Of a stretch of DNA of 64,000 nucleotides, positions 21,242 through 56,811 are shown in pieces. The stretch is from a virus (lineage: Duplodnaviria; Heunggongvirae; Uroviricota; Caudoviricetes). The first letter of the stretch is position 1. Each line of letters begins with the position of its first letter. Under the pieces are notes generated by a model. The model made no database searches and was not told where the DNA came from. It saw only the letters and a list, made by a program, of their open reading frames with translations. The position numbers and the translations under genes were made by a program. The stretch covers positions 1 through 64,000 of the IMG/VR virus record IMGVR_UViG_3300029142_000001. One strand, 5' to 3'.

Positions 21242-22117
21242 ATGTTTATGATAAAAAATCATGAAGAGATGCAGTATTTACAATTACTAGAAGAATGCAT
21301 TAATCAAAAAGATTTACAAGAAGACAGAACGGGTACTGGGACTTTCGGAGTCATAGGGAGATCAATGAGATTTGATCTCTCTCATAATAGGATGCCTCTG
21401 TTAACAACAAAGAAAGTATATTGGAAGGGTGTTGTAGAAGAACTTCTGTGGTTTATTTCAGGACATACAAACTCTCAAATTCTCGAAGATAAAGGTGTGA
21501 ATATCTGGAAGGGAAATACTTCTAGAGAGTTTTTAGATAATAGAGGTCTTGAATCATATCCAGAAAAAGAAATTGGTCCAGGATATGGATTTCAATGGAG
21601 AAACTGGAATGGTGATTATGATGTATGGTTAAATTGGGGAATTCGAACCGGAATTGATCAGTTTGATACCCTTATTAATGAAATTAAAAACAATCCTTCA
21701 TCAAGAAGGCATGTCTTATGTTCCTGGAATGTATCCGCCATTCCGCATATGGTTCTTCCACCATGCCACTGTCTTGCACAGTTCTTTGTAAGAGGGAATA
21801 AATTATCTTGTTTGTTATATCAAAGATCATGTGATATGTTTTTAGGTGTTCCTTTTAATATTGCGAGTTATGCTCTATTAACACATATGATTGCAAAGGA
21901 AACTGGTCTCGAAGCCGATGAATTCATATGGAATGGTGGAGATATCCATCTATATTCAAATCATATAAATCAAACAAAAGAGCAAATTAGTAGAACCCCG
22001 TATGAATTCCCCACGGTTGAATTACCAAATAAATCAATTTATGATATTACAATCGAAGACATTCAATTAAATGATTATCAGTCCCATCCGTCTATCAAAG
22101 CAGATATGGCGGTTTAA
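21242..22117 (+). CDS. td: thymidylate synthase
   Basis: DRTGTGT, FGxQWRNW, PPCHCLAQF, LSCLLYQRSCDMFLGVPFNIASYALLTHMIA signatures; true start possibly 21248 or 21269. Confidence 0.85.
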   Translation: MFMIKNHEEMQYLQLLEECINQKDLQEDRTGTGTFGVIGRSMRFDLSHNRMPLLTTKKVYWKGVVEELLWFISGHTNSQILEDKGVNIWKGNTSREFLDNRGLESYPEKEIGPGYGFQWRNWNGDYDVWLNWGIRTGIDQFDTLINEIKNNPSSRRHVLCSWNVSAIPHMVLPPCHCLAQFFVRGNKLSCLLYQRSCDMFLGVPFNIASYALLTHMIAKETGLEADEFIWNGGDIHLYSNHINQTKEQISRTPYEFPTVELPNKSIYDITIEDIQLNDYQSHPSIKADMAV

Positions 22118-26776: not shown

Positions 26777-27874
26777 ATGAATATTGAATCTTTAGGATTT
26801 ACAATTGTAGAACTTGAACAAGCCATTGAAGATGGCTTTGTTTCTGTTCGTGATCATCCTACAGAGGATCTTCGTATTTACAATTATACTGCAAAAGCAC
26901 AATATTCTAGAACATGGAATTCTGTAACAAGACAATGTAGAGGTCTTATTTTAGATCATGATTTGAACATCATTGCTTTGCCCTATGCTAAGTTCTTCAA
27001 TATTGAAGAAGAAATGGCAAATCCTGATAGTACTTGGCATACACCGACCAAATATTTCCTACAGGAAAAGCATGATGGTTGGTTGGGAATTCTTTATAGA
27101 GAACCAAAGTCTGGTTTGCTTTCAATTGCATCTCGTGGATCTTTTGATAGTTCTGGTGCTATTATTGCAACAAATATTCTCCGCACTAATCACTCTGATT
27201 TTGTTCCGGTGGAAGGTCTTACATACATGTTTGAAATCATTCATCCAGAAACAAAAATTGTTCTGGATTATGAAGGAAAAGAATCTCTCGTGTTTTTTGG
27301 CGTGAATAGTGTAAATGGACCCAACAATGATGTGAGTATATTTGACCAAATGCGGAAAAATGGTTTTGAAATTTGTGAATTCAAAGAACTTGGATGTGGA
27401 AATCTACGATTTTTGTTTGAAGAATACAAGCATGAAAATACAAAGAACAAAGAAGGATATGTTGTTGTAGATGCCAATGATTTTTCAAATCGGCTCAAGA
27501 TCAAATTTGAAAATTATATTCGTGATCATAGAATCATTACTCAACTAACCCCTCTTCGAGTGTGGGAAGCATTGCGTGATGGAGTCTACGATAATATTGT
27601 ATCCGTGTGTCCAGATGAGCATATGGAATGGTTACAGGAAATGCGAAATGAAATCGTAGAGCAATACAACGAAATTTTCTGGAAATCAAAGGCTGCGTTT
27701 GCAAGTTTGATGCTTCAGGTTTGGGATTTAATGTCCGATCCTTTGACTATTGATCGGAAAGAATTTGCTCAAAAAGCATTAAAATATCCAGAATTTGCAC
27801 CAATTTTGTTCGCTATGCTTGACAAAAAGGATTTTTCTCCTATAATTTGGAAGAAAATTAGACCAAATTCTTAA
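26777..27874 (+). CDS. rnlA: RNA ligase, Rnl1 family (T4 RnlA-like)
   Basis: LRIYNYTAKAQYSRTWNSVTRQCRGLIL and KFFNIEE parallel T4 Rnl1 YRIFSYNYASYSDW...ECRGIMF / KFFNLNE; motif I EKHDGW (KxDG). Confidence 0.65.
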   Translation: MNIESLGFTIVELEQAIEDGFVSVRDHPTEDLRIYNYTAKAQYSRTWNSVTRQCRGLILDHDLNIIALPYAKFFNIEEEMANPDSTWHTPTKYFLQEKHDGWLGILYREPKSGLLSIASRGSFDSSGAIIATNILRTNHSDFVPVEGLTYMFEIIHPETKIVLDYEGKESLVFFGVNSVNGPNNDVSIFDQMRKNGFEICEFKELGCGNLRFLFEEYKHENTKNKEGYVVVDANDFSNRLKIKFENYIRDHRIITQLTPLRVWEALRDGVYDNIVSVCPDEHMEWLQEMRNEIVEQYNEIFWKSKAAFASLMLQVWDLMSDPLTIDRKEFAQKALKYPEFAPILFAMLDKKDFSPIIWKKIRPNS

Positions 27875-30960: not shown

Positions 30961-31335
30961 ATGGATGCAATTGAAATCAGTAGATGGGGAAAAGATCATT
31001 GGTCTTTGTTTGCATATCTTGGTACAAGAGTGGTTGATTATCAAGGAACTACAAACCCTCAACATATGCGAGGTAAGTTTAATAACATGTGGAAACCAGA
31101 ATATGGATCTAGATTGAAAGGTTATTTTGAAAATAGAGATCCAGAATATCTTCTTGATGATCATGATGATTACGATTGTCTCCATGATATCGAAGCTGCT
31201 GGATTTATCAAAAACAATGGAAGTGGTATTAATCCACTTGTATCTTTTACTGATGAAGGGTATGATGTACTTCTAAAGCTTACGAAACACAAAGCAAGCG
31301 GTGGAAATTTTGCAGAGTTTGAATATAAGGAATAA
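30961..31335 (+). CDS. hypothetical protein
   Basis: 124-aa ORF. Confidence 0.45.
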   Translation: MDAIEISRWGKDHWSLFAYLGTRVVDYQGTTNPQHMRGKFNNMWKPEYGSRLKGYFENRDPEYLLDDHDDYDCLHDIEAAGFIKNNGSGINPLVSFTDEGYDVLLKLTKHKASGGNFAEFEYKE

Positions 31336-31338: not shown

Positions 31339-32313
31339 ATGTCTACACATATTTGTCCGGTAGTACGGATTAAAAAGAGTCCACACCCAAATGCGGATTC
31401 TCTTTCTATTATGGAAATTATGGGATATGAAGTAGCTTTACGGAGTGATGATTGGGAAGATGGTCAATTGGCTGTTCATATTCCTCCTGATTATTGGGTT
31501 CCAGATACTTATCCATTTCAGTTTCTAAAACCAACTTCAACAAAGTGGCAGCGTACTCGAACAAAGAAGTTTCGTGGTCGTTATTCCTATGGATTTTTGA
31601 TTCCTTTGCCTGAAGAATTAAATCTTCAGGTAGGGGATAATGCTATGGAAGCTCTTGGAATCATTCGATATGAAGCACCAGAAAACACTTTTTCTGGAGA
31701 TAATGAATCCGCACCAGAAGGAATTTATCCGAAATACGATATCGAAAACTATCAGAGATACACGGATCTATTGGTAGATGGTGAAACTCAGGTTATTGTA
31801 ACCGAGAAAATTCATGGTGCAAATGCTCGATTTGTATTTACAGACGGGCGTATGCGTGCCGGTACAAGAACTCAATGGAAGAAAAGAGATAGTACCTGTA
31901 TGTGGTGGAGAGCAGTAGAACAAAATCCTTGGATTGAGGAATGGTGTACTGCAAATCCAGACATTACCATATATGGTGAAGTATTTGGTAATGTTCAAAA
32001 TTTAAAGTATGGTGCGATCGGTGGACAAATTTTCTTCCGGGCGTTTGATCTTCTTCAAAATGGTGAATGGATTGATTACACTAATTCCAGAGAAATTGGA
32101 AAGGGTATCGAATGGGTTCCTCTTGTTTATAGTGGACCAATGAACATCGAACTCTTTTCGGAAATCATTTTGGGCAATACTCAATTGATGGATCCAAAGA
32201 ATGCTCATATGATGGAGGGCGTGGTTATTCGTCCATTTGAAGAGATGTATGATTCTTCTGTTGGAAGAGTTATTCTTAAGCTTGTCTCGCCTAGATATTT
32301 GGAGAAGAACTAA
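31339..32313 (+). CDS. RNA ligase, Rnl2-like nucleotidyltransferase domain fused to an N-terminal Myf/EMAP-type tRNA-binding OB domain
   Basis: N-terminal ICPVVRIKKSPHPNADSLSIMEIMGYEVALRSD...QLAVHIP fits the tRNA-binding arm consensus (v.kI...HPnAdkL.v..vd.G); motif I EKIHGANARF matches Rnl2 KIHGTN. Confidence 0.6.
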   Translation: MSTHICPVVRIKKSPHPNADSLSIMEIMGYEVALRSDDWEDGQLAVHIPPDYWVPDTYPFQFLKPTSTKWQRTRTKKFRGRYSYGFLIPLPEELNLQVGDNAMEALGIIRYEAPENTFSGDNESAPEGIYPKYDIENYQRYTDLLVDGETQVIVTEKIHGANARFVFTDGRMRAGTRTQWKKRDSTCMWWRAVEQNPWIEEWCTANPDITIYGEVFGNVQNLKYGAIGGQIFFRAFDLLQNGEWIDYTNSREIGKGIEWVPLVYSGPMNIELFSEIILGNTQLMDPKNAHMMEGVVIRPFEEMYDSSVGRVILKLVSPRYLEKN

Positions 32314-32628: not shown

Positions 32629-33348
32629 ATGAGTAAAAAAGTCATGTTGGTTATTGCGAATTACAAAGACGAGAGGCAATCTATTTTTGATAATCAAATC
32701 TCTCCGAGAAATCAAGAATTTGCAGATGAACATGGATACGAATATATTGTCAGTAAAGGCGGTGATATATTTCGAGGTAATCCAACATGGTGGAAATTTA
32801 CTATACCTGTACAAATGATTAATGAGGGTGTTCTTCGACAAGAAGACACTCTTTTACATTTAGATGCAGATATGGTTATCACCAGAATCGGTAAAGATTA
32901 TCCTAATGATAAAACTTTTGCATACTCCATTGATAATGGAAATACGCATTGCATGGGAAATTATTCTCTTAAGATCAATGATTGGTCTGTAAATATGATT
33001 CGCCATATTCTTAGTGAAGAACTTTGGATGAAGATGCAAAATGATTATCATTGGTCCAGATTCAGAGAACAAGCTGCTTGGTATACTCTTTCTGGTGTGT
33101 GTCATCATAGCTGGGTTCCATTTTTGGATATGCCGAATTATGGATGGCATTCACACTTTACGGATGAAACTCGATATTCTGTAAGAGAACTACACGAAAG
33201 AGTGCATGTTTTAGGACCAGAATGGAATACGACTCTTGTAAATCCTCAAGAGAGATACTATATTCAACCATCAGACCCAAGCGAAACAATAATTAGACAT
33301 TTTGCTGGTGGTCAAAGATGGGATGTTAGTGATTGGATTTGGGCATGA
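32629..33348 (+). CDS. putative GT-A glycosyltransferase (DxD)
   Basis: LHLDADMVI DxD motif; start placed at MSKKVML after GGATTATAG RBS-like stretch. Confidence 0.4.
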   Translation: MSKKVMLVIANYKDERQSIFDNQISPRNQEFADEHGYEYIVSKGGDIFRGNPTWWKFTIPVQMINEGVLRQEDTLLHLDADMVITRIGKDYPNDKTFAYSIDNGNTHCMGNYSLKINDWSVNMIRHILSEELWMKMQNDYHWSRFREQAAWYTLSGVCHHSWVPFLDMPNYGWHSHFTDETRYSVRELHERVHVLGPEWNTTLVNPQERYYIQPSDPSETIIRHFAGGQRWDVSDWIWA

Positions 33349-34247
33349 AAAAAGATACAATTAGAATATGTTTTGTAGATTTTTGGCCTAATCTGTTCCA
33401 GGACGATAATTATTTTTATAATCTTCTATCAACAAAATACAATGTGATTATTGATTTTGAAAATCCAGATATTGTATTCTATTCTGTTGATTATATGAGG
33501 CGTGGAGATATTCGTAGATACATGGATAAACCATGTAAAAAGATCTATTACACAGGAGAAAACACACTTCCTGATTGGAATGTTGCTGATCTCGGATTCA
33601 CATTCGATTATGCATCACATGGAGGAAAGAACTACAGACTTCCTCTTTGGTCTCTCCTTATTAACTGGTTTGATCGTCCATACATTCAAGAAAGAGATCA
33701 TGCATATCTCCATGATCCAGAATATCTTCTAAATTCTAAGAAATTCTCCGGATTCAAGAATCTATTTTGTAATTTTGTATACACACAACCCAAAGCCCGT
33801 AGAGTTACTATATTCCCTAAATTGACCGAGGCATTTCCGGGTATGATTCATTCTGCTGGATCTGTTTTTAACAACACCGGAACAAAACTTCCCGGTCGTG
33901 GAGATACAAAGGATAAAGTAGATTATTTGTCAAATTTTAAATTTACCATCTCATTTGAGAATCAACAAGCAAGTGGATATCAAACCGAAAAAATATTCCA
34001 TCCAATGATGGTTGGAAGTATTCCAGTTTATTGGGGAAATCCAACTGTAAAGACTGATTTTAATCCAGACTCTTTCATCAATGCAAATACCATGACTGAT
34101 GAAGAGGTTATACATAGAATGCGTGAAATTCATGAAGATGATGAGCTATATCAGCATATCTTATCTCAACCGTGGTTTCACGATAATAAGTTTCCAGATT
34201 TTATCATGCCCACTAATGTTCTTGCAAAGATAGAGAGTATTTTATGA
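33345..34247 (+). CDS. alpha-1,3-fucosyltransferase-like (GT10)
   Basis: FKFTISFENQQASGYQTEKIFHPMMVGSIPVYWG matches the GT10 FxLxFEN...DYxTEK motif. Confidence 0.55.
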   Translation: MKKDTIRICFVDFWPNLFQDDNYFYNLLSTKYNVIIDFENPDIVFYSVDYMRRGDIRRYMDKPCKKIYYTGENTLPDWNVADLGFTFDYASHGGKNYRLPLWSLLINWFDRPYIQERDHAYLHDPEYLLNSKKFSGFKNLFCNFVYTQPKARRVTIFPKLTEAFPGMIHSAGSVFNNTGTKLPGRGDTKDKVDYLSNFKFTISFENQQASGYQTEKIFHPMMVGSIPVYWGNPTVKTDFNPDSFINANTMTDEEVIHRMREIHEDDELYQHILSQPWFHDNKFPDFIMPTNVLAKIESIL

Positions 34248-34909
34248 TTCCAACAACTTATGTTTTACATTATGATAAATTGCCAGAGAGAAGACAATTT
34301 ATGGAATATCAATTTGAACATCAAAAATTTTGTGATGTTGTTTGGTATACCGATGAGGAAGATAATCTAGAAGGAATTTACGATGGTGTAAACTCTTCTA
34401 GATTTACTGAAAAGGTCCGGATTGGTGGTTGGAATACAGAAGAACATCGTCCCCGATTTTTAAATCAAGCAGAAATATCATTAACAGCAAAATTCGGAAG
34501 AGTTTTTAGATTGATCGCAGAAAATCCAAATCCATATTCTTTGCTGTTTGAAGATGATGCTTGTTTATGCCCACATTTTCTTCAAAATATGAATTTATAT
34601 TTGCATAACACTCCAGATGATTGGGATGTTATCTATATGGGATCTGGTGCAAATTTACATCCTAAAAATCTTGAAATTGGAAAATATGCATATTTGATGG
34701 ATCATCCAGCTTCTCGTTGTGCAGATTCTATTCTTATCAAAAGAGAAGCGGCCAAGAAACTCGCAGATGATTTCTTTCCGTTTGATCTCTGTTCAGATTG
34801 GGAAATTGGATATCTTCAGGCAAAACATAAAATGAATGTTTATTGGTGGGAACCTTCTTTGGTTCATCAAGGATCTGAAACTAATCTCTTTAATTCTTCT
34901 CTAAGGTAA
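34244..34909 (+). CDS. glycosyltransferase family 25 (LPS/LOS-type)
   Basis: YVLHYDKLPERRQFMEYQF N-terminal and LLFEDDACLCPHF motif typical of GT25. Confidence 0.5.
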   Translation: MIPTTYVLHYDKLPERRQFMEYQFEHQKFCDVVWYTDEEDNLEGIYDGVNSSRFTEKVRIGGWNTEEHRPRFLNQAEISLTAKFGRVFRLIAENPNPYSLLFEDDACLCPHFLQNMNLYLHNTPDDWDVIYMGSGANLHPKNLEIGKYAYLMDHPASRCADSILIKREAAKKLADDFFPFDLCSDWEIGYLQAKHKMNVYWWEPSLVHQGSETNLFNSSLR

Positions 34910-34915: not shown

Positions 34916-35497
34916 ATGTCAGAAAGATACATCATAACCCCAGGAGCGTGTGGAACACATGCTCTTATAGATTTTATGGGGTCAAGCTATTCGAAACGAG
35001 ATCATCATCGTAGAAACTCAAATAGCTTTCAGGCAAATTCAAAAATTGTGTATCTTTTTGCAAATCCATATGATACCATTCTTTCTTTTTTCAGGAGAAA
35101 CGATCAAGGAGGAAAATTCCTTGAATCTCATTGCAAACATATGGAAGGAAATGATGGATATTTCCATAAGAAGAAAATTACACTGGAAGAGTTTTTGAAA
35201 GATCCCAATGATCCTTTCATGCTGGAAGATCATTATCTGGAGTATGTAAATAATGTAAATAGAAACTATGATCTTCTGGTTGTAAGATATGATACTCTTA
35301 AATATGAAGGTCCAAAATCGATTATTGATTTTTGGGGATTGGATATCGATCCATCCAAATTTAAATTTATAAAAAGAAATTCTTGTTGGACTGATCAGTC
35401 AGAAGAAATACAGGATCTTTTTTATCAGAAATATGGAAAGTTCAAAGACATGTATGATCAGCTTCCTAATTCCCAATTGTATAAGAGAGAAAATTAA
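34916..35497 (+). CDS. putative sulfotransferase
   Basis: IITPGACGTHAL (5'-PSB-like P-loop) and LFANPYDTILSFF (3'-PB RNPxD-like) motifs. Confidence 0.4.
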   Translation: MSERYIITPGACGTHALIDFMGSSYSKRDHHRRNSNSFQANSKIVYLFANPYDTILSFFRRNDQGGKFLESHCKHMEGNDGYFHKKKITLEEFLKDPNDPFMLEDHYLEYVNNVNRNYDLLVVRYDTLKYEGPKSIIDFWGLDIDPSKFKFIKRNSCWTDQSEEIQDLFYQKYGKFKDMYDQLPNSQLYKREN

Positions 35498-36465: not shown

Positions 36466-37265
36466 GAAATGAACTAACTGTACTTATTCCTACACATGCA
36501 GTCAAGGTTGAACAGATTGGACCATACAAAAATCATCGTCAACAAAATCGAACCGCTCCATATACCGATTTGATTGAAAAGGTGATCAAAAACATTCAAG
36601 AATCATTAACTTTATTTGATTTACAATTTGTGATTGGATTGGATCATAAAGAAGACGATGATCTTTCTTGTGAGTATTTGGAAAATCTCAAGAAATTGGG
36701 CCATACTGTGATAACAACAGATTCTAAACTTGAAGATAAACCTCTTACAACTGTTACAGCAACTAGAAACTTTTTGAATCTCATTGATCATTCTCCTACC
36801 GAATGGTTTATGTTATGGGAGCATGATTGGGTATTTTCAGATTCTGACTTTATTCGAGAAAAGCAAGAATCTATTTTAGCAAGTACATTATGGCATACTC
36901 CATTGGGAAGAGATGTCATGCTTAGATTTAACCAAAGAGAAAATAAAACATATGAAGGCCATGAATTTGTATGGGTTGAATATGAATCTCCAGAAACAAA
37001 AGGCCAAGTTTTAAGAACAAGTCTCTATTCTAATAATCCATTCATCACCAGTAAAACATATTGGAAAAAATTCTTCGAGCCATATGCAAGAGAAATTCCT
37101 GATTGGTGGGGAGAACATGGGGCATTTATTGAAGGTCCAATCAATAGAAATCTTAAAGAAAAACACAATGTAGAAGATTATACGATTAACCTATTTGGAA
37201 ATATGGGAATGAAAGCCTCAGTTCATCATTTAAACGGGCAAGTATGGGATAATAGAAATGACTAA
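36462..37265 (+). CDS. hypothetical protein, possible GT2-like glycosyltransferase
   Basis: ELTVLIPTHA resembles the GT2 N-terminal strand; weak. Confidence 0.3.
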   Translation: MRNELTVLIPTHAVKVEQIGPYKNHRQQNRTAPYTDLIEKVIKNIQESLTLFDLQFVIGLDHKEDDDLSCEYLENLKKLGHTVITTDSKLEDKPLTTVTATRNFLNLIDHSPTEWFMLWEHDWVFSDSDFIREKQESILASTLWHTPLGRDVMLRFNQRENKTYEGHEFVWVEYESPETKGQVLRTSLYSNNPFITSKTYWKKFFEPYAREIPDWWGEHGAFIEGPINRNLKEKHNVEDYTINLFGNMGMKASVHHLNGQVWDNRND

Positions 37266-38151
37266 AAAAATTGCGATGTTTTGGGATTATGATCCAAATC
37301 AACCAGATCAATGGTGCACTCCTTATGGGATTTATAGTCATCTCAAAAATGTTTTTCGATATGAGATGAGGCAATATTGTACTCTTAAAGGAGACAAGAC
37401 AAAAGGATTCAGAGATTATCTTGAAGATGATTTTCAAGCTGATGCTCTTGTTCTTTTTAATGCTGGACCACTTCCAGGAGCAGAAAATTACTGGAATAAA
37501 GAAGTTATGGGAGATGCTCTATTAATTCAAGAAGCTGGTGATGAACCTCAATGCTATAATCACACTCTTTCATTTAGTACAAATTCTGATCTTGTCCTCA
37601 CTCCCGATCTCCGATGTGTAGAGATGTATGAAACTCGTGGAGTTAATGTTGAATGGATGACTCATTGGTGTGATGAAAAGATTTTTTTCGACAAACCAGA
37701 TCAAGAAATTACAAATGATGTTGTCAGTTCTATGTGTGGAGGAAGACAAAGAGCAAGTGTCATTCAAAATCTTGTTGGTCCAGAAAAATTTAAAAATGCG
37801 ACTGGATTAATCGGATTGCAAAATGGAGAATGGCTTCGAACAGGAAAAATTATTCTCCAAGATTCTAGATATGATGAAATAACCAGAAGAATTTTCGAAG
37901 GTATGGGATGTAAAAGAATGGTCCTGACAGATAGGATTTCGAAGGATACAGGACTTGAAGATCTTTTTGTTGATAGAGAGGATATCGTATATTACGACTC
38001 ACCAGAACATGCGGTTGAACTTATTGAGTACTATCTTAAGAATGATTCTGAAAGAGAAAGAATAGCCGAAAATGGCTATTTAAAGGTCATGGAGGGGCAT
38101 ACTTCTCTCCATAGAGCAGATCAAATTTCTCAATTTATTTTATCAAATTGA
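37258..38151 (+). CDS. CgeB-like glycosyltransferase (putative)
   Basis: C-terminal EHAVELIEYYLKNDSERERIAENGYLKVMEGHT resembles the Glyco_trans_1_2/CgeB C-terminus. Confidence 0.4.
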   Translation: MTKKIAMFWDYDPNQPDQWCTPYGIYSHLKNVFRYEMRQYCTLKGDKTKGFRDYLEDDFQADALVLFNAGPLPGAENYWNKEVMGDALLIQEAGDEPQCYNHTLSFSTNSDLVLTPDLRCVEMYETRGVNVEWMTHWCDEKIFFDKPDQEITNDVVSSMCGGRQRASVIQNLVGPEKFKNATGLIGLQNGEWLRTGKIILQDSRYDEITRRIFEGMGCKRMVLTDRISKDTGLEDLFVDREDIVYYDSPEHAVELIEYYLKNDSERERIAENGYLKVMEGHTSLHRADQISQFILSN

Positions 38152-42353: not shown

Positions 42354-42620
42354 ATGTGGAAATTTTTTAAGAGATTTCAAACGCGAGATCTTATTCGAGA
42401 GAACATCGAAAATATCGATCCATCTGATTTTGAACTGCAACTTGTAGAACTTAAAGCTGGTTTTTTGGAAGATTGTAGATTTGATAAGAGAGGGTATCAT
42501 CATACCAAATATTTCATTTTTAAGTATTCTGGTCATATCGTTCTTATGATTAATGGAGTTCAGGAACGAGTAGATGAGCCCTGGTTGGTTAACTATTACG
42601 AGAGAATTATTGCATCATAG
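42354..42620 (+). CDS. hypothetical protein
   Basis: 88-aa ORF after the promoter. Confidence 0.45.
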   Translation: MWKFFKRFQTRDLIRENIENIDPSDFELQLVELKAGFLEDCRFDKRGYHHTKYFIFKYSGHIVLMINGVQERVDEPWLVNYYERIIAS

Positions 42621-42633
42621 TAAAGGAATAAAA

Positions 42634-43845
42634 ATGCAGCATGTAGTTTACGATAAGAATTCTGGAATGCGTGTTCCTGTCAAGGTTTGGACCAAGGATT
42701 ATGAACGGTCAGCACTTGAACAAGCAATGAATGTTGCTCGTCTTCCGTTTATTCATAGTCATGTTGCACTTATGCCTGATACACATTTTGGGTATGGTGT
42801 TCCTATTGGATCCGTTGTTCCCTGTGATGGTTATGTGATTCCCAACGCGGTTGGAGTTGATATCGGATGTGGTATGTGTGCTGTGAACACTCGTATTCAT
42901 CTAGGGGATTTTAGTGATTCTGATATTGATACTCTTTTCAATACATTGAAGACTAGAATTCCTGTTGGTTCAAACTGGCATAAGTCAGATGAATATACTG
43001 CATTGCGATTCGATGAAACCGCTAATGAATTGGCAGATATTTTTGGTCGATATGATCCTGTTGGAAAGAAGCCAATCGATGAAAATTCTTTGGTTCGAAT
43101 GTCTGGAACACTCGGAGATGGAAATCATTTCGTTGAGCTTCAGATTGATGAACACAAGAATATTTGGATCATGATTCATTCGGGATCAAGAGCTTTTGGT
43201 GCATCTATCGCAGATCATTATCATCGTCTTGCAAAGAGAATGTGTGAGCTATACCATAGTGACCTTCCTACGCTTGATCTTGCATATCTTCCTGTGAATT
43301 CCGAAGAAGGACAGGGATATATCCAGGCAATGAATCTTGCTTTGGAATTTGCATATCTTAACCGACGAGTAATGATGCTCAATGTGTTGGAAGTGCTGAG
43401 AAGTATGATTCATGGGGCTCCTATGATGGATGAAATGATTAACATCCACCATAACTATGCAGCCATTGAAAATCACAGAGGAAAGAATGTGTGGGTGCAT
43501 AGAAAGGGAGCAACTTCTGCCCGAGAAAATCAGATTGGAATTATTCCTGGATCTATGTGTACCAAGTCGTACATTGTAAGAGGAAAGGGAGATGGTCATT
43601 CCTTTATGTCTTGTTCTCATGGATCGGGTAGAAACTTCAGTCGAAAGGAAGCAAAGAGACGAATTGATGATGGAATTGATCCTTCTCAGGAAGATCAGTT
43701 GAACGGAGTCAAGGTTTTTGGAGCTTCGGATGTTCGTGATGAAGTTTCATCGGCATATAAGAATGTGGAAGATGTCATGGGATATCAGACAGATTTGGTT
43801 GAAATTTTGCATGAATTGCGTCCTCTGGCAGTTCTAAAGGGTTAA
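42634..43845 (+). CDS. rtcB: RNA-splicing ligase RtcB
   Basis: MPDTHFGYGVPIG, GVDIGCGM, GDGNHF, HSGSRAFG, NIHHNY, CSHGSGR motifs of the RtcB family; start at 42634 after AAAGGAATAAAA. Confidence 0.85.
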   Translation: MQHVVYDKNSGMRVPVKVWTKDYERSALEQAMNVARLPFIHSHVALMPDTHFGYGVPIGSVVPCDGYVIPNAVGVDIGCGMCAVNTRIHLGDFSDSDIDTLFNTLKTRIPVGSNWHKSDEYTALRFDETANELADIFGRYDPVGKKPIDENSLVRMSGTLGDGNHFVELQIDEHKNIWIMIHSGSRAFGASIADHYHRLAKRMCELYHSDLPTLDLAYLPVNSEEGQGYIQAMNLALEFAYLNRRVMMLNVLEVLRSMIHGAPMMDEMINIHHNYAAIENHRGKNVWVHRKGATSARENQIGIIPGSMCTKSYIVRGKGDGHSFMSCSHGSGRNFSRKEAKRRIDDGIDPSQEDQLNGVKVFGASDVRDEVSSAYKNVEDVMGYQTDLVEILHELRPLAVLKG

Positions 43846-46187: not shown

Positions 46188-46260
46188 GGGGGATTGGTGA
46201 AACTGGATATCATGAAAGACTACGAATCTTTTGTTCCGAGTTCGAATCTCGGGTTCCCCG
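46188..46260 (+). tRNA. tRNA-Arg (anticodon ACG)
   Basis: Acceptor GGGGGAT/GTTCCCC (2 GU), AC stem aaaga/tcttt loop ctACGaa, T-arm ccgag-ttcgaat-ctcgg; D-arm not cleanly resolved. Confidence 0.55.
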
Positions 46261-46268
46261 TTTAAACT

Positions 46269-46352
46269 GGAAGAGAACCGGCTGGATCAGGAGCCTGTCT
46301 TGAAAACAGGTAGGGTTAATAGCCCTTGGGGGTTCGAGTCCCCCCTCTTCCG
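46269..46352 (+). tRNA. tRNA-Ser (anticodon TGA), class II
   Basis: Acceptor ggaagag/ctcttcc, AC stem cctgt/acagg loop ctTGAaa, long variable arm, T-arm ggggg-ttcgagt-ccccc. Confidence 0.7.
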
Positions 46353-46374
46353 CTTCTATTTAAAGGAGAAAAAT

Positions 46375-46572
46375 ATGAAAATTTTAGCAGTTTTAGTGTT
46401 TTGCTTGTTTGTTCTTTCTGGATGTTCAACATCTAGTACAGATGTTTCCCAGGTTGATGACTCCGGAGTATCATTAACCGTGGTTAATCCAGATACAGGC
46501 ATTCAAGAAACACTTCGTTTCGATTCTAAAAGAGAAGCAGATGAATACATGTCGGGATTGTATTCAGATTAA
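46375..46572 (+). CDS. small secreted/lipoprotein
   Basis: MKILAVLVFCLFVLSGC signal/lipobox after TAAAGGAGAAAAAT RBS. Confidence 0.5.
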   Translation: MKILAVLVFCLFVLSGCSTSSTDVSQVDDSGVSLTVVNPDTGIQETLRFDSKREADEYMSGLYSD

Positions 46573-46593
46573 TTTTTTCAAAAAGGAAGAAAA

Positions 46594-47436
46594 ATGCACA
46601 GACTAATTTCGTTGATACTATTTTGCATCGTATGTTTAAGCATAGGTACAAGTTCAGCATTTGCAAGTGGAGATTATCCGTATCCATATACAGGACCAAG
46701 TGATGGTCAGTCTGGATATGGATATGTTCCTGAACATCACTACGATCCAGGAACAGGAAATGGACCTACAGATCCATATACTATTTTCCTTTTGGAAATG
46801 ATTAATGGAGCAGATGAATATGAAGAAGTAAGCAAGAAGAATTTGTCTCTTTGTTTATTCTTTGCAACTACTCCGTATGAAAGATTGCAATGCATCATCG
46901 GCCATGCAAGTAACGATCGAATCGAAGCAGAAAAACACCATGCTTGGATGCAAAGACGAGACAATTACATGCAATTTTTATTCTGTAGATGTATGGAAAA
47001 TGCAGGAGATTTTGGTACATGTAACGATAAGTATCCAACACATCCAAACGATCCTACATGGTACCCAACTCCATCATATTGTGATGGACTAGATGAGGCA
47101 ACTTGCCCTGAATGGGATCCAGATGCTGGTGAAGATGGTTTCGGTGGTTGTGTGGGTCAAGGAGAAGGAGATTGGGATTGGCTTGAAAATCTGAATTACC
47201 CAGTTGGTGATCCAGAAAGCAATGACGGATTCGATTCTTGGACACAAGAAATGCACGATGTTTATGAGGACTGGAGAGTTTCAGTTGCAACAAACATGAG
47301 AGATTTCTATACAGATATTGAAAACGGAGAAACTCTTGAAGATGCAATCGTTTTCTTTTACATTGCATATGATGCTGATACAAGTGCTTTTATCTCATCA
47401 TTTTACGCAGAAGTTATCGCATCTGGTAACTATTAA
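46594..47436 (+). CDS. secreted cysteine-rich protein
   Basis: Signal peptide MHRLISLILFCIVCLSIGTSSAFA; acidic, Cys-rich mature region. Confidence 0.5.
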   Translation: MHRLISLILFCIVCLSIGTSSAFASGDYPYPYTGPSDGQSGYGYVPEHHYDPGTGNGPTDPYTIFLLEMINGADEYEEVSKKNLSLCLFFATTPYERLQCIIGHASNDRIEAEKHHAWMQRRDNYMQFLFCRCMENAGDFGTCNDKYPTHPNDPTWYPTPSYCDGLDEATCPEWDPDAGEDGFGGCVGQGEGDWDWLENLNYPVGDPESNDGFDSWTQEMHDVYEDWRVSVATNMRDFYTDIENGETLEDAIVFFYIAYDADTSAFISSFYAEVIASGNY

Positions 47437-47466
47437 GTATAAACACATTGCCCTATAAGGGCAATT

Positions 47467-47551
47467 GGAAGATAATCCCCGATGGTGAAGGGCCTCGCTT
47501 GGAAAGTGAGTGGAGCTTAATAGGCTTCTGGTTCGATTCCAGTATCTTCCG
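47467..47551 (+). tRNA. tRNA-Ser (anticodon GGA), class II
   Basis: Acceptor ggaagat/atcttcc, AC stem ctcgc/gtgag loop ttGGAaa, long variable arm, T-loop ttcgatt. Confidence 0.6.
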
Positions 47552-47580
47552 TTTTTAAAATCTCATTTTAAATAAAATCT

Positions 47581-47669
47581 GGAAAGTAGGCAACTATCGG
47601 TTCGTTGCACCACCCTGCTAAGGTGGCGTATTCTTCGGAGTACTAAGGGTTCGAGTCCCTTACTTTCCG
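47581..47669 (+). tRNA. tRNA-Ser (anticodon GCT), class II
   Basis: Acceptor ggaaagt/actttcc, AC stem ccacc/ggtgg loop ctGCTaa, long variable arm, T-arm aaggg-ttcgagt-ccctt. Confidence 0.65.
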
Positions 47670-47675
47670 CTTAAC

Positions 47676-47749
47676 ATTCCTGTAACTCAATTGGCCAGAG
47701 TGCTTGCTCGACATGCAAGTGGTTCCCAGTTCGAATCTGGGCAGGAATA
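47676..47749 (+). tRNA. tRNA-Val (anticodon GAC)
   Basis: Acceptor attcctg/caggaat, D actc/gagt, AC cttgc/gcaag loop tcGACat, T-arm cccag-ttcgaat-ctggg. Confidence 0.7.
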
Positions 47750-47762
47750 TTTTGAAAATTAC

Positions 47763-47790
47763 TTGACTTCCTCGAAATATCTCCTATAAT
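47763..47790 (+). promoter_or_regulatory. promoter (TTGACTTc-16-TATAAT)
   Basis: -35 at 47763-47768, -10 at 47785-47790. Confidence 0.55.
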
Positions 47791-47827
47791 GTATTATAAT
47801 GTATGTAAAGACTTGAATGGAGTTAAA

Positions 47828-48022
47828 ATGGTAGATCCTGTCATGGCTTTAATTATTTTGGGTGTAGGAATTTTATATTGTGTTATTCGTATTGCAACGA
47901 ATTCGCCCGAAAGAATGTATAAAATTCAGAAAAAAGCCTTCGAAAGACAGAAACGAACTGATGAAGCTTTTGCTTCATATTTGGGTGAATATTACAAAAT
48001 TAAAAATGATGTGTACAAGTAA
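47828..48022 (+). CDS. small membrane protein
   Basis: 64 aa, N-terminal TM helix. Confidence 0.45.
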   Translation: MVDPVMALIILGVGILYCVIRIATNSPERMYKIQKKAFERQKRTDEAFASYLGEYYKIKNDVYK

Positions 48023-48037
48023 TTATAGGAATTTATA

Positions 48038-48256
48038 ATGGAATTTGATCTTGAAAAAGTAATTGAAGAAATCATTGTTGGTAATTCAAATGGAATCAAA
48101 TATACTGCATTGATTGCAGAAGTTCTCGATATCGCACAATCTTCCGGAGCTATTGTAACTCTCGATGAGATCGAAAATGCTGTTACATCAAAGTATACTT
48201 ATCTCAAATACACATTCCAAGGGCGGGAAAAGTGGTTTGTTTTTAAGAATAGTTAA
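48038..48256 (+). CDS. hypothetical protein
   Basis: 72-aa ORF. Confidence 0.4.
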   Translation: MEFDLEKVIEEIIVGNSNGIKYTALIAEVLDIAQSSGAIVTLDEIENAVTSKYTYLKYTFQGREKWFVFKNS

Positions 48257-48268
48257 ACGGAGTATATC

Positions 48269-48727
48269 ATGAATACAATCAATGAATTCACAGATGAAGA
48301 ACTTCAGCAAGAACTTGATCGAAGAAAGATTCAAGCTGCTTGTGAAGAAACTCTAAAAAAGTTGAAGGAATGGGGAAATCCTTATGGAGTGTGGAGGATT
48401 TCAACAGAAGGTGATTGTGAAGGGCGTACAGTAAATGTTCTTGCAACTCGAAAAGGCCATATTGCTGATCTTGCAAGAATCTATGAGAGGGATAAGATGT
48501 ACACTCTCACATTCACAAAAATTGATTTGGATGAAGATGATATTGTAGATACGCCTTCAGAAAAAGGTTCATTCTCTCTTAATTATCACACTTTTCCATC
48601 AGAAGTTGGAGGACATCATCTTGCAATGAGTCAAAAAGTTCATATTGTACAAGAATGGATTGGACCTAATTTTATTGTAGAGAGTTATGAACGAGGATCT
48701 TTTATTGTTAGTAAGAAAAAAACATAG
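48269..48727 (+). CDS. hypothetical protein
   Basis: 152-aa ORF. Confidence 0.45.
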   Translation: MNTINEFTDEELQQELDRRKIQAACEETLKKLKEWGNPYGVWRISTEGDCEGRTVNVLATRKGHIADLARIYERDKMYTLTFTKIDLDEDDIVDTPSEKGSFSLNYHTFPSEVGGHHLAMSQKVHIVQEWIGPNFIVESYERGSFIVSKKKT

Positions 48728-48779
48728 TTTAAAATAATATGAAAGCCTTCATTTTCCTATATAACTATAGGAGAGTGAA

Positions 48780-49271
48780 ATGGAAAAGAAAGTTTTAAAT
48801 GATTTAATAAATTCTGGATTGACACATAAAGAAATTGCAAATAAGGTGGGATGTAGTCAAACCAATGTAAGATATTATATCAAAAAATATAACATTAAAA
48901 AAGGATATTGTATAGTATGTAATAATCAATTGCAAGGAAATCAAAGAAAATATTGTTCTGATCAATGTAAGGGAAGAATATATAAAGAAAATGCAAATAT
49001 ATATGAAAATCAAAAAAAGAGAGCAATTGAAAGAAAAATTAAATTAATAAATATGTGTGGTGGTGAATGTTCTGTATGTGGTTATAAAAAAAATATAGCA
49101 GCATTACATTTTCATCATATTTTACCGGATACAAAATTATTTCAATTAGATTCTAGAAAATGTGCAAATTCTAAATGGAGTACACTACTAACAGAAGTTA
49201 AAAAATGCTCTCTTTTATGTGCAAATTGTCATGCTGAATTACATCATAAAAAATACAATAATTTGATTTAG
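48780..49271 (+). CDS. HNH homing endonuclease with N-terminal HTH
   Basis: LTHKEIANKVGCSQTNVRYYI HTH; HNH core ALHFHHILPD...CSLLCANCHAELHHK. Confidence 0.6.
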   Translation: MEKKVLNDLINSGLTHKEIANKVGCSQTNVRYYIKKYNIKKGYCIVCNNQLQGNQRKYCSDQCKGRIYKENANIYENQKKRAIERKIKLINMCGGECSVCGYKKNIAALHFHHILPDTKLFQLDSRKCANSKWSTLLTEVKKCSLLCANCHAELHHKKYNNLI

Positions 49272-49357
49272 GGGCGAGTTCCATAGCGGCCTAATGGACC
49301 GGACTCATAATCCGGCGAGTTCACACTCAAACGCAGGTTCGAATCCTGTCTCGCCCA
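49272..49357 (+). tRNA. atypical class-II-like tRNA with CAT anticodon
   Basis: Perfect acceptor gggcgag/ctcgccc, D ccat/atgg, AC ccgga/tccgg loop ctCATaa, 17-nt variable region with gagt/actc stem, T-arm gcagg-ttcgaat-cctgt; 86 nt. Confidence 0.45.
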
Positions 49358-49376
49358 TTTTAAAGGAGAATATAAC

Positions 49377-49907
49377 ATGATTTGGCTGGGATGTATTTAT
49401 ATTAGTGTAATTCTTTTGTTGGTGGCCATTTTTGATCCTGGAGATTTTTTTGGATGTATAGCATTAATGTGGTTTATTTTATCTTTATTGATGCTCCTGG
49501 TACTCACTCCCGCTTTTTATGCTGAATCCCGAAGACTTAATCCGAATAGATTGGTTCAACAAAAAGTAATTTTTGAAGAATCTATTCTTCCATCGGAAGA
49601 AGGTTACTATGGTTTATATTTAAATGAATGGAGTGAATTTCATTATGTATCAACTGGATTTGCATTTAGATATTCAGATGGAACAAAAGATTTTGTAGAA
49701 TCGTACTCAATTTCCTTTTCAGATGATGTAGATGCTCCTACAGTATTTAAGTACAAGAATATCTATGAGGTAAATGATTTGTTTTTTCCTTCTTTCAAAT
49801 CGCACATTACTCATGAAGATGGTGTATATTATTTCGTATTTCCATCATCATATCGATCAGAATTTAATACAAAATTCATTACTACTACTTTGTACGAGGA
49901 TTTTTAA
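49377..49907 (+). CDS. membrane protein
   Basis: 176 aa, two N-terminal TM helices. Confidence 0.45.
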   Translation: MIWLGCIYISVILLLVAIFDPGDFFGCIALMWFILSLLMLLVLTPAFYAESRRLNPNRLVQQKVIFEESILPSEEGYYGLYLNEWSEFHYVSTGFAFRYSDGTKDFVESYSISFSDDVDAPTVFKYKNIYEVNDLFFPSFKSHITHEDGVYYFVFPSSYRSEFNTKFITTTLYEDF

Positions 49908-50275
49908 TGGAATGGTACTTTCTTATTATTCTGGCCATTTTTATCACAAAACACCTTATTGTTGATTTTTTCTGGCAGTCTGGATATGAAGTGGCAAACA
50001 AAGGAACTTATGGACATTTCGGTGGTATTTTACATACCGGAAAACATGTCATTGTTTCGGCTTTCTTTCTTATGTTTCTTGTTTCTCCTTTGACTCTTTT
50101 TCTTCTATGTGCATTTGAATTTGTGGTCCATTACCATATGGACTGGTTTAAGATGTGGTGGGGAAAAAGAAAGAAATTTACACCAAATGATGCAAAATTT
50201 TGGCATTGGATGGGAATAGATCAATATATACATTACTTTACTTATCTGATTATGGTTGCTATAATGCTTCTGTAA
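49907..50275 (+). CDS. multi-pass membrane protein
   Basis: 122 aa with 3-4 hydrophobic segments. Confidence 0.45.
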   Translation: MEWYFLIILAIFITKHLIVDFFWQSGYEVANKGTYGHFGGILHTGKHVIVSAFFLMFLVSPLTLFLLCAFEFVVHYHMDWFKMWWGKRKKFTPNDAKFWHWMGIDQYIHYFTYLIMVAIMLL

Positions 50276-50285
50276 GATAAAATTG

Positions 50286-50358
50286 GCTCCTGTATATCAA
50301 TGGCGAGATGGCTTCCGTTACATGGAAGAGGTTGCTGGTTCGAATCCAGCCAGGAGCA
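50286..50358 (+). tRNA. tRNA-Val (anticodon TAC)
   Basis: Acceptor gctcctg/caggagc, AC cttcc/ggaag loop gtTACat, T-arm gctgg-ttcgaat-ccagc. Confidence 0.7.
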
Positions 50359-50360
50359 TT

Positions 50361-50510
50361 ATGACAAAAGAAGAAGCAAACAAAAAGTTAGAAGAAATTA
50401 TTGAAAATTATAGGAAAGAATTTATAATTTTAGATAAAATTCGTAAAGATGAGCAGGAAAAATTTGATAATTCTTGGATAGGTAAAATTGTAAACAGATT
50501 GGAATTTTAA
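50361..50510 (+). CDS. small hypothetical protein
   Basis: 49-aa ORF beginning right after the tRNA; the longer listed ORF would overlap the tRNA. Confidence 0.3.
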   Translation: MTKEEANKKLEEIIENYRKEFIILDKIRKDEQEKFDNSWIGKIVNRLEF

Positions 50511-51085
50511 TTATGAAAAATAGCACAGATTTCCAAAAAAATGTCTAGAATATTTCATTATATTTTTTCATGTATGGAACCCATTATGGGAAATGATATG
50601 CAAGAATTTGTTTTAGAATGTGAAGAAGACTAAAAATGAATAATTTATCATATAACGAAGACAAAGCGGATTTAATCAGGAAGGCAGCAGTAAATGAAGC
50701 TTTTAAGTTTCTAGAAAATCCTGATGATCTCGATGTTTTAGAAAGATTAATAGAATATGGAACTATTTTGAAAAATATAAAAAATGAAAGTGAAGGAGCA
50801 TATAGTAATGGATATTGATATTTTGACAAGTGGACTGAAAGATTTTCTGAAATCATTTGACCCAACCCTTGAAACATGCTATAATGCTGATGACCCTTCA
50901 GAATGGTATACCGGAAATGCAGATGACGATATGAGCAATGGATATGATGCTGGATATCACGCGGCACAAGAACAAATTATGGGAATTGTGAAGGCAGCAG
51001 AAGCAGGTAGATAATATATACAAAGGCGGCGTGAAACTTAAACGGTCAAGACGAAACTTTGACTCCGGATTCGTAACCGGAATTT

Positions 51086-51158
51086 GGGACGGTAGCTTAG
51101 TTGGTAAAGCGTACCGCTGATAACGGTGAGATCATAGGTTCAAGTCCTATTCGTCCTA
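51086..51158 (+). tRNA. tRNA-Ile (anticodon GAT)
   Basis: Acceptor gggacgg/tcgtcct, D gctt-agttggta-aagc, AC taccg/cggtg loop ctGATaa, T-arm atagg-ttcaagt-cctat; resembles E. coli tRNA-Ile. Confidence 0.7.
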
Positions 51159-51190
51159 TTTTTTAGATATTATTCACAGGAAATTATAAA

Positions 51191-51379
51191 ATGAATACCA
51201 AGCATAAATCTATTAGGCATTCAAAGAAAAATCTACGAATCAAATCACATCATATTGATTCTAATTTTCCACCACGGCTTAATATTGATGGGATACAATT
51301 AAAATCATCTATCCCTACAACATATTCTACCGGAGATTATATTTTATGGGGACCAAAAAGATTTAGAACAGAAAGTTGA
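51191..51379 (+). CDS. hypothetical basic protein
   Basis: 62-aa ORF. Confidence 0.35.
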   Translation: MNTKHKSIRHSKKNLRIKSHHIDSNFPPRLNIDGIQLKSSIPTTYSTGDYILWGPKRFRTES

Positions 51380-51639
51380 ATATTATGGAAACTTTTGAAG
51401 ATAAAATTGATGAATTAATCAGTCTTTTAGAGTATATGAAGGATGAAATTCCATCAGAAGAATTAAAAGAACCTTCAAATATTTCAATTGGAATTGCAAT
51501 GCATGGATGGACGCATAGAAATTCAGATATGCATAGAACTGAATACCGAATGATACGATGGGCAGATATCTATACAAGAGGCATGGGTATAGAAGCATCA
51601 TTGGTAAAATCTAGACATTTTAGTAAAATTTCAGATTAA
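51376..51639 (+). CDS. hypothetical protein
   Basis: 87-aa ORF. Confidence 0.4.
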   Translation: MNIMETFEDKIDELISLLEYMKDEIPSEELKEPSNISIGIAMHGWTHRNSDMHRTEYRMIRWADIYTRGMGIEASLVKSRHFSKISD

Positions 51640-51645
51640 AATTTG

Positions 51646-51717
51646 GGGGTAGTAGCTCAGTGGTAGAGCTTTTCGTTGATAACGGAACGGTCGGAGGTTC
51701 GAACCCTCCCTGCCCTA
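51646..51717 (+). tRNA. tRNA with GAT anticodon (Ile, second copy)
   Basis: Acceptor ggggtag/ctgccct (2 GU), D gctc-agtggta-gagc, AC tttcg/cggaa loop ttGATaa, T-arm ggagg-ttcgaac-cctcc. Confidence 0.55.
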
Positions 51718-51743
51718 TTGTTTGACATTAAAGGAGATATATT

Positions 51744-52070
51744 ATGTCAACTCCAACAGGTGGAAATTCCTTGCATGTTCTTGGCTCAAAGCCTCTTCAT
51801 AGAAGGTATGATACAAAAATGTTCATGAAGTATATTCGACCATCGTATTACATGGCAAACGCTCCTGAATGTTTTTGCTTGTCTGTTTTCTTCTTCTGTA
51901 TTCTTGCAGGATTGATTCCTTTTACAAGCTTGCTTACTGGAAGCACTTTGCTTATTGGTTTGAGTGTACTTGGATTTATGTTTCTAGCTTCTGCTTTGTT
52001 TTTGATGCTTGGAATTTATTCAAAAATTTCTTATGCACGAGAGAGAAATAAGAAAAATTCCTCTACATAA
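51744..52070 (+). CDS. membrane protein
   Basis: 108 aa, two TM helices. Confidence 0.45.
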   Translation: MSTPTGGNSLHVLGSKPLHRRYDTKMFMKYIRPSYYMANAPECFCLSVFFFCILAGLIPFTSLLTGSTLLIGLSVLGFMFLASALFLMLGIYSKISYARERNKKNSST

Positions 52071-52077
52071 TAGTAAT

Positions 52078-52149
52078 GCTCTTCTGCCCGAATGGTTAGG
52101 GTCTGGATTGCAAATCCAGTATATTTCGGTTCGAATCCGAAGGGGAGCT
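52078..52149 (+). tRNA. tRNA-Cys (anticodon GCA)
   Basis: Acceptor gctcttc/ggggagc, AC ctgga/tccag loop ttGCAaa, T-arm ttcgg-ttcgaat-ccgaa. Confidence 0.65.
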
Positions 52150-52157
52150 TTAAAATT

Positions 52158-52229
52158 GTCCTTATGGTGATAGTGGTAACACACTTTCTTGGTACGAAAG
52201 AATCTCAGGTTCGATTCCTGATAGGGACT
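52158..52229 (+). tRNA. tRNA-Thr (anticodon GGT)
   Basis: Acceptor gtcctta/tagggac, AC ctttc/gaaag loop ttGGTac, T-arm tcagg-ttcgatt-cctga. Confidence 0.65.
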
Positions 52230-52243
52230 TTGGAGAATACACA

Positions 52244-52546
52244 ATGAATTTTTATGATGTGCATGGAAGAAGAATCTATGTTTATAGAGTTTACCATTAT
52301 GAATCAAATGAATTATATGTTACATCTCAAAAAGGTGTAGAAGATGAAATCAAAAAAATCATTAATAGAATTGAGATTTTGTTCAAAGAGATTATGGACT
52401 TAGATTATGATAATTCAGAACATGAAGAAATTGAGAAAAATCTAATTGATCAAATAAACTATTTACGAGAAAAAGCGTTTTCTAAATATGGACTCACTAA
52501 GATTGAAGCTGAAGAAGATCGTACTTTTATGAGTATGCATTTCTAA
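52244..52546 (+). CDS. hypothetical protein
   Basis: 100-aa ORF. Confidence 0.45.
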   Translation: MNFYDVHGRRIYVYRVYHYESNELYVTSQKGVEDEIKKIINRIEILFKEIMDLDYDNSEHEEIEKNLIDQINYLREKAFSKYGLTKIEAEEDRTFMSMHF

Positions 52547-52558
52547 AGAAGATTTGAT

Positions 52559-52798
52559 GTGAAAAGAACAGCAATTATCTATTTTAAAGACGGCACACAC
52601 ATAAAAACACAAAAACATATCTCTTCTAAACAGATTGAAAATTCATATTTATCTAGAACTGAAATAAGAGATATGATTGATAATGAAATTAGAAAATCTG
52701 TTAGGGCGTTTTTAGTTAGACATGATCGAAAAATTGAAAATATTGATTTCACCAGAACAAATTCAGCAATGATTAAATTTGTGTTTGAAGAATCTTGA
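52559..52798 (+). CDS. hypothetical protein
   Basis: 79-aa ORF. Confidence 0.4.
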   Translation: MKRTAIIYFKDGTHIKTQKHISSKQIENSYLSRTEIRDMIDNEIRKSVRAFLVRHDRKIENIDFTRTNSAMIKFVFEES

Positions 52799-52822
52799 CT
52801 TTCAAAAAATATACTCTATAAT
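52795..52822 (+). promoter_or_regulatory. promoter (TTGACTTT-16-TATAAT)
   Basis: -35 at 52795-52800, -10 at 52817-52822. Confidence 0.55.
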
Positions 52823-53061: not shown

Positions 53062-53079
53062 GTGTATAGGAGATTAATC

Positions 53080-56810: not shown

Positions 56811-56811
56811 T

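Follow-up and report, generated by a model that had tools for sequence, protein, structure and literature searches.

Does a ligase gene in a large phage genome carry a generic tRNA-binding arm that sends the enzyme to broken tRNAs, or does it encode an RNA ligase of a kind that has already been described? The question is raised by an open reading frame (ORF) at 31339..32313 on the plus strand of a 64,000-nucleotide stretch of DNA (positions 1 to 64,000 of the IMG/VR record IMGVR_UViG_3300029142_000001, the whole of which is called the window here) that appears to be a section of a large phage genome. A preliminary description, made from the letters alone, had read the product as an Rnl2-type ligase newly tethered to a generic tRNA-binding module. 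Our analysis indicates that the product is very probably a phage version of the Rnl5 ligases, a family of ATP-dependent enzymes that seal nicks in RNA, the prototypes of which are DraRnl of Deinococcus radiodurans and NgrRnl of Naegleria gruberi.

The ORF is complete from ATG to TAA (324 residues plus stop). A Shine–Dalgarno-like AAGGA at 31327..31331 on the same strand, read from the sequence, lies 7 nucleotides 5′ of the ATG, and the TAA shares bases with the start codon of the following ORF (TAATG), which is typical operon packing. An identical 324-residue protein is found on three independent metagenome contigs with the gene order the same. Residues 1–50 of the Rnl5-type product are MSTHICPVVRIKKSPHPNADSLSIMEIMGYEVALRSDDWEDGQLAVHIPP; the N-terminal string quoted in the preliminary description (ICPVVRIKKSPHPNADSLSIMEIMGYEVALRSD...QLAVHIP) is found near the N terminus of the product, which also contains TEKIHGANARF, the lysine of which is residue 157 (KIHGAN being residues 157–162). 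Pfam assigns residues 11–90 to PF21189 (‘PHA02142 OB-fold domain’, E=2.2e-9) and residues 151–316 to PF09414 (‘RNA_ligase’, E=1.2e-22), and an AlphaFold model built on an alignment of 43 relatives features a beta-rich N domain and an alpha/beta C domain (predicted local distance difference test score, pLDDT, 92.5; predicted template modelling score, pTM, 0.85). The ORF and its two-domain split, which is far beyond chance, are thereby confirmed as genuine, as the preliminary description had it. The N-terminal OB domain, which is the Rnl5 signature domain and belongs to the Trbp/EMAPII tRNA_bind structural class, comprises residues 1 to about 115 (31339..31683). It is followed by an interdomain linker of residues ~116–130 (31684..31728), the least confident part of the model (pLDDT 68 for residues 111–120), and by the C-terminal nucleotidyltransferase (NTase, or adenylyltransferase) domain (31729..32310), which corresponds to PF09414 (profile positions 2–171 of 171, E=3.9e-23) and ends just after motif V, with no C-terminal appendage beyond it. 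All of these features, and those within the gene that are described below, are on the plus strand.

Profile, sequence and structure comparisons converge on one family. The NCBIfam profile TIGR02306 (RNA_lig_DRB0094, the DraRnl family) matches the protein with E=3.8e-39 over profile positions 12–341 of 341, and the PHROGs RNA ligase family phrog_968 aligns with residues 4–323 (E=4.6e-27). The NgrRnl entries are the only real PDB-sequence matches of the single sequence (phmmer, E=2e-13), in an alignment that begins at residue 14 and takes in both the N domain and the ligase domain. When the PDB sequences were searched with the profile of the 43 relatives, residues 16–315 were aligned with NgrRnl 19–336 (E=3e-32), and T4 Rnl2 was matched at 3.7e-4 through its NTase part alone. 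Foldseek comparison of the AlphaFold model returned 13 NgrRnl entries as whole-chain matches (E 6e-20 to 1e-17, template modelling (TM) scores 0.72–0.78), whereas other ligases (Rnl3, Rnl2, REL1, Rnl1, Trl1 and DNA ligases) were matched through the shared NTase core with E≥3.5e-7 and TM scores of ~0.45 or less. A homologue search yielded 1,468 proteins, the best 120 of which all combine PF21189 with PF09414, and several of these 120 carry the name ‘RNA ligase (TIGR02306 family)’. Homologues also occur in 162 phage records, many of them with an RNA ligase annotation. The Pfam, PHROGs and TIGR02306 matches, together with the NgrRnl sequence and fold matches, therefore place the protein in the Rnl5 family with its defining architecture, the ‘signature domain organization’ of the published accounts (PMC4408790, PMC1807946, PMC7261155).

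The ligase portion had been described as Rnl2-type. It is a PF09414 ligase that does carry KIHGAN, but it is of the Rnl5 type and not of the Rnl2 type. Membership of Rnl2 was rejected because the Rnl2 profile TIGR02307 gave E=0.14 (11.6 bits against a cut-off of 197), the NTase domain lies at the C-terminal end, and the fold match to Rnl2 extends over the NTase only. T4 Rnl2 shares with the phage protein an NTase of the same Pfam family and the same nick-sealing chemistry, but its domain order is the opposite, with the NTase at the N terminus and a helical domain at the C terminus, so that the architecture is indeed unlike that of T4 Rnl2, as had been noted. The TM score for the T4 Rnl2 NTase is about 0.42–0.45, and the Foldseek scores for the NTase domains of Rnl3 and REL1 are ~0.42. 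Motif I of T4 Rnl2 also reads K-I-H-G.

The closest structural counterpart, the eukaryal NgrRnl (PDB 5COT/5COU and 6VT0–6VTG), has the same order of an N-terminal OB domain and a C-terminal NTase domain, likewise no C-terminal appendage, and the same overall fold (TM 0.77). It differs in that sequence identity is only about 21–23%, its N domain has longer insertions, its motif I is KLDG instead of KIHG, and it has IAGAEAI where the phage clade has HPNADxL. DraRnl (Deinococcus radiodurans DR_B0094, the founding member of Rnl5) was compared through the TIGR02306 profile and published residues; the whole profile is matched, motif I has the same T-x-K-x-H-G form and the RG-motif arginine of the N domain (R79) is conserved, but the phage protein falls in a subfamily of its own, which is often met on large phage-like contigs. 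What the gene adds is one more divergent phage protein in a described ligase family, the architecture, fold and chemistry of which are already established, and on its own it matters little; two points are of modest use, namely the tRNA_bind kinship of the Rnl5 N domain and the array of RNA-repair genes in the genome, both described below.

Catalytic residues were mapped through the NgrRnl alignments (phmmer and family profile), and conservation was counted in the 43 relatives. Motif I, T155-E-K157-I-H159-G160 (31801..31818), contains K157, which is equivalent to NgrRnl K170 and is the predicted AMP-accepting lysine; E156, K157 and G160 are invariant. The same holds for E214 of motif III (31978..31980), the counterpart of the NgrRnl catalytic-metal ligand E227 (PMC7261155), for E293 of motif IV (32215..32217; NgrRnl E312) and for K314 of motif V (32278..32280), the counterpart of NgrRnl K326, which contacts the ATP alpha and gamma phosphates. 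All mapped residues of motifs I (K157, H159 and G160), III, IV and V are thus intact. In the N domain, the profile alignment pairs D51 with NgrRnl D53 and R110 with NgrRnl K121, both of which, in NgrRnl, make contact with the gamma phosphate of ATP and with metal (PMC7261155).

Several observations weigh against a simple assignment to Rnl5. The TIGR02306 score of 134.5 bits is below the NCBI equivalog cut-off of 151.15, which indicates a divergent subfamily and not a close DraRnl orthologue. The alignments place Asn137 (31747–31749) opposite NgrRnl Arg149, an essential residue in contact with the gamma phosphate of ATP; most relatives also have Asn at this position, and the N-terminal stretch with NgrRnl Arg4 is not alignable. 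In that same region His4 (31348–31350) is invariant in an alignment of 29 N domains. The replacement of R149 by N137 and the unalignable Arg4 region imply that details of ATP gamma-phosphate binding may differ, and, judging from the alignments, the clade to which the ORF belongs may hold this phosphate differently from NgrRnl. Moreover, the physiological functions of Rnl5 enzymes have been called ‘uncharted’ (PMC5397189).

The low TIGR02306 score and the changes at NgrRnl-important positions, R149 to N137 and D172 to H159, could also be taken as signs of an inactive ligase homologue that is kept for binding and not for catalysis. We regard this as extremely improbable, as none of the residues mapped in motifs I, III, IV and V, the lysine nucleophile among them, varies across the 43 relatives, and as a histidine in motif I is a normal Rnl5 state too: DraRnl has the same T-x-K-x-H-G form (T163, K165, H167 and G168), with H167 essential (PMC1807946). 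In addition, the NgrRnl variant D172A stays active (PMC7261155).

The N domain is where a tRNA-binding arm like those of MetRS C-termini and PheT had been recognized, and profile searches bear this likeness out. A profile of 29 N domains (residues 1–125) matched NgrRnl among the PDB sequences (E=2.6e-18) and thereafter tRNA_bind proteins only, with MetRS C-terminal domains at E=3e-4 (5h34, 3.2e-4; 1mkh, 3.4e-4) and further matches to PheRS beta subunits, the human TyrRS EMAPII-like domain, E. coli YgjH and a putative tRNA-binding protein. Alignment of this profile by hhalign to YgjH alone gave E=6.3e-4, and to an alignment of YgjH, the MetRS C domain and PheT B2 it gave a probability of 91.5% (E=8.7e-7, 69 columns). 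Comparison with the tRNA_bind family PF01588 in Pfam, which had been proposed as a check, produced no match at E≤10 for either the 324-residue protein or its N domain. Weak PF01588 matches were found in 21 of the 29 N domains (best 9.3e-5), all 29 of which match PF21189. As the direct Pfam test is empty, the tRNA_bind relationship is visible from family-level profiles and structure only.

Two motifs are shared with tRNA_bind. The first, H16-P-N-A-D-S-L22 (31384..31404), corresponds to the HxNADKL signature of tRNA_bind and is aligned by hhalign with YgjH H25-E-N-A-D-K-L31; H16 and L22 are invariant in the 43 relatives, and conservation of P17, A19 and D20 reaches 90% or more. The second is the hairpin K76-K-F-R79-G-R-Y-S83-Y-G85-F86-L87 (31564..31599), which corresponds to the tRNA_bind K-x-R-G-x-x-S-x-G-M motif (in the phage domain, a hydrophobic residue follows the final glycine) and in which K77-F-R79-G-R-Y-S83-Y-G85-F86 is aligned by hhalign with YgjH K73-M-R75-G-E-T-S79-E-C-M82. 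R79, S83 and G85 are invariant, and R79 is equivalent to the RG-motif arginine of NgrRnl and presumably also to DraRnl Arg79. In the AlphaFold model, the domain has elements beyond those of tRNA_bind, namely a helix at residues 58–66 and a C-terminal extension to about residue 115; it also differs from tRNA_bind in being fused to a ligase and in having a demonstrated family role in ATP chemistry.

In fold, the N domain is an OB domain of the Trbp/EMAPII structural subclass; it is distantly homologous to the tRNA_bind OB domain of Trbp, EMAPII and CsaA, whose structural class it shares. The preliminary description had named two findings that would refute its reading, a non-OB fold and an alignment to the normal N domain of Rnl5/NgrRnl-type ligases rather than to tRNA_bind. 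The former was not seen; the alignment to the Rnl5 N domain was, yet the homology to tRNA_bind holds too. The domain is both a normal Rnl5 N domain and a tRNA_bind-type OB domain, and this is true of the whole Rnl5 family and not special to the gene. A full-text literature search, with partial coverage, found no paper that ties Rnl5, NgrRnl or DraRnl to EMAP, Trbp111 or CsaA.

In both characterized Rnl5 enzymes, DraRnl and NgrRnl, the N domain is required for ligase adenylylation (PMC1807946, PMC4408790, PMC7261155), but its removal leaves the sealing of a pre-adenylylated nick intact or even improves it (PMC1807946, PMC4408790). The R79A change in DraRnl reduces adenylylation to about 10% (PMC1807946), and in the Michaelis complex of NgrRnl the OB domain touches both the gamma phosphate of ATP and its metal and sets the pyrophosphate in position to leave (PMC7261155). 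The loss of adenylylation, the retention of nick sealing and the ATP contacts together indicate that the role of the N domain is catalytic, in step 1, and is not one of substrate tethering. The idea of a newly tethered generic tRNA-binding module is thus not upheld: the module is the family-defining N domain of Rnl5, for which a catalytic role has been established in DraRnl and NgrRnl.

A function in tRNA capture could nevertheless coexist with a role in adenylylation. The N-terminal OB domain could act as an arm that catches the single-stranded 3′-CCA end, by analogy with Trbp111 and Arc1p, and guides the ligase to broken tRNAs. In the Trbp111–tRNA co-crystal, R75, F78, S82 and M85 line the pockets for the 3′-terminal C75 and A76, and their Arc1p counterparts are V271, R274, S278 and M281 (PMC11286949). 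By spacing and alignment, the positional equivalents in the phage protein are K76 (Trbp111 R75), R79 (F78, or R274 in Arc1p), S83 (S82) and F86 (M85). The most conserved residues of the N domain are found at these positions of the tRNA 3′-end pocket. The Rnl5 signature domain clearly falls into the tRNA_bind (Trbp/EMAPII) OB class and has positional counterparts of these Trbp111 residues. The profile-level homology and the weak PF01588 matches among the 29 N domains point the same way, as do the HPNADxL signature, which the clade has and NgrRnl lacks, and the 24 tRNA genes and other RNA-repair ligases of the genome.

Even so, existing data do not support a tRNA-guiding arm, which we consider unlikely. 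Deletion of the N domain in both characterized enzymes cripples step 1 and spares the sealing of pre-adenylylated nicks, which argues that the domain is not needed for substrate recognition in the sealing step. Both DraRnl and NgrRnl act on nicked duplexes with 3′-OH and 5′-PO4 ends and an RNA 3′-OH strand (PMC1807946, PMC4408790), and no tRNA preference is reported in the literature examined. The contact of the NgrRnl domain with the ATP gamma phosphate suggests that the conserved face may be occupied there, the phage protein itself lacks a PF01588 match at the threshold given above, and T4-type tRNA repair is already covered by the Rnl1-type ligase of the genome. The fuller proposal, that the Rnl5 N domain descended from a Trbp/EMAPII-type OB domain and still holds an RNA 3′ end (for example tRNA CCA) through K76, R79, S83, F86 and the HPNADxL loop, which would make the phage Rnl5 proteins of this clade tRNA-directed repair enzymes, appears more doubtful still. 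If true, it would give the Rnl5 family a concrete physiological target.

A mechanism in line with the Rnl5 assignment can be proposed from the characterized family members. K157 would attack ATP to form ligase–AMP while the OB domain closes onto the active site and sets the orientation of the departing pyrophosphate, with D51 and R110 presumably acting as D53 and K121 do in NgrRnl. AMP would next be passed to the 5′-phosphate, and attack by the RNA 3′-OH would seal the nick within a duplex or stem. The genomic context suggests that the ligase could be one element of a phage toolkit for RNA repair and translation protection, made up of the 24 tRNA genes, the Rnl1-type ligase, RtcB, an HNH-associated ligase and nicotinamide phosphoribosyltransferase (NAMPT), which might preserve tRNAs or other structured RNAs against cleavage by host defences.

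The components of this putative toolkit are distributed over much of the window. A T4 Rnl1-type RNA ligase is encoded at 26777..27874 on the plus strand (PF09511, E=2.1e-14), 3.5 kb upstream of the Rnl5 gene; a scan of ~55 ORFs revealed no gene for a polynucleotide kinase-phosphatase. Between the Rnl1 and Rnl5 genes lies the NAMPT gene (28151–29533; PF18127 and PF04095), which fits phage NAD+ salvage against host NAD+ depletion. An RtcB 3′-phosphate/5′-OH RNA ligase gene (42574..43845, plus strand; PF01139, E=5.9e-112) is located just upstream of an island of 24 tRNA genes (46188..63246), all on the plus strand and detected with ARAGORN, 20 of which score above the Rfam gathering threshold. 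In the island 16 amino acids are represented, of which Ser, Val, Ile, Thr, Gln, Lys, Tyr and Asn have duplicate genes, and small ORFs are interspersed. The tRNA-Met gene (49272–49357) and one of the tRNA-Asn genes (62499–62584) are unusually long at 86 nucleotides. An Rfam scan of the 64-kb window returned tRNAs only.

A further PF09414 ligase is encoded by a 224-residue ORF at 56136..56810, which matches only positions 128–335 of the 342-residue profile phrog_24030 and is overlapped in another frame by an HNH endonuclease ORF (55847..56173; PF01844, E=3e-7). Together, 55847–56810 looks like the known HNH–Rnl2-type fusion split by a frameshift, the cause of which could be a genuine split of the gene, programmed frameshifting or a fault in the assembly. 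That this ligase is a recent duplicate of the Rnl5 gene was considered and rejected (BLASTP, E=0.09). In jumbo phages, RtcB, Rnl1 and Rnl2-type ligases, many tRNAs, NAD+ salvage and HNH–Rnl2 fusions have been described as counter-defence adaptations (PMC7824862), and the phage-like genome, with four ligase genes of different types, 24 tRNA genes and NAD+ salvage, is a good example of a jumbo-phage RNA-repair arsenal.

Other genes in the window raise the possibility that the ligase serves DNA replication or repair of the phage and seals nicks with a ribonucleotide-ended 3′-OH strand, such as RNA patches or primers in DNA. DraRnl requires RNA only on the 3′-OH side and accepts DNA in the 5′-PO4 and template strands, and its loss slows genome reassembly after irradiation (PMC5397189, PMC4408790). 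Upstream of the Rnl5 gene there are genes for a T4-type RNase H/FEN, an exonuclease (PHROG family), thymidylate synthase (21242..22117) and, directly after the latter, a class II ribonucleotide reductase. We nonetheless judge such a function unlikely, as the nearest neighbours with an assigned function are the Rnl1-type ligase, NAMPT and glycosyltransferases and not replication genes, and as a genome that invests so heavily in RNA ligases and tRNAs suggests RNA repair. Nor is there a conserved linkage to replication genes in relatives on other phage-like contigs: Rnl5 relatives are found on phage-like contigs of 72, 522 and 568 kb, and no consistently adjacent gene was found around the relatives on these three contigs. 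On one of these contigs, genes for a cREC domain protein and an Rnl1 ligase are close by.

The ribonucleotide reductase is encoded by a 1140-residue ORF (22138–25560) that contains the insertion domain of the class II (B12-dependent) enzymes and is interrupted by an intein splicing domain with a LAGLIDADG homing endonuclease; a Cpn10/GroES-like ORF is found directly downstream of it. The Rnl5 gene is itself directly followed by a run of sugar-modifying genes (32605–38151), an unusual cluster for a phage, which includes a GT10 fucosyltransferase (33333..34247), a GT25-like glycosyltransferase (34244..34909), a sulfotransferase-like ORF (34916..35497) and a Glyco_trans_1_2 protein (37258..38151). 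Genes are densely packed across the window, where the guanine-plus-cytosine (GC) content is 30–39%. Near 10 kb the genes change strand and the GC skew changes sign, with minus-strand genes at 1–10053 and plus-strand genes from 10343; this switch may be the border of a module or a landmark related to replication.

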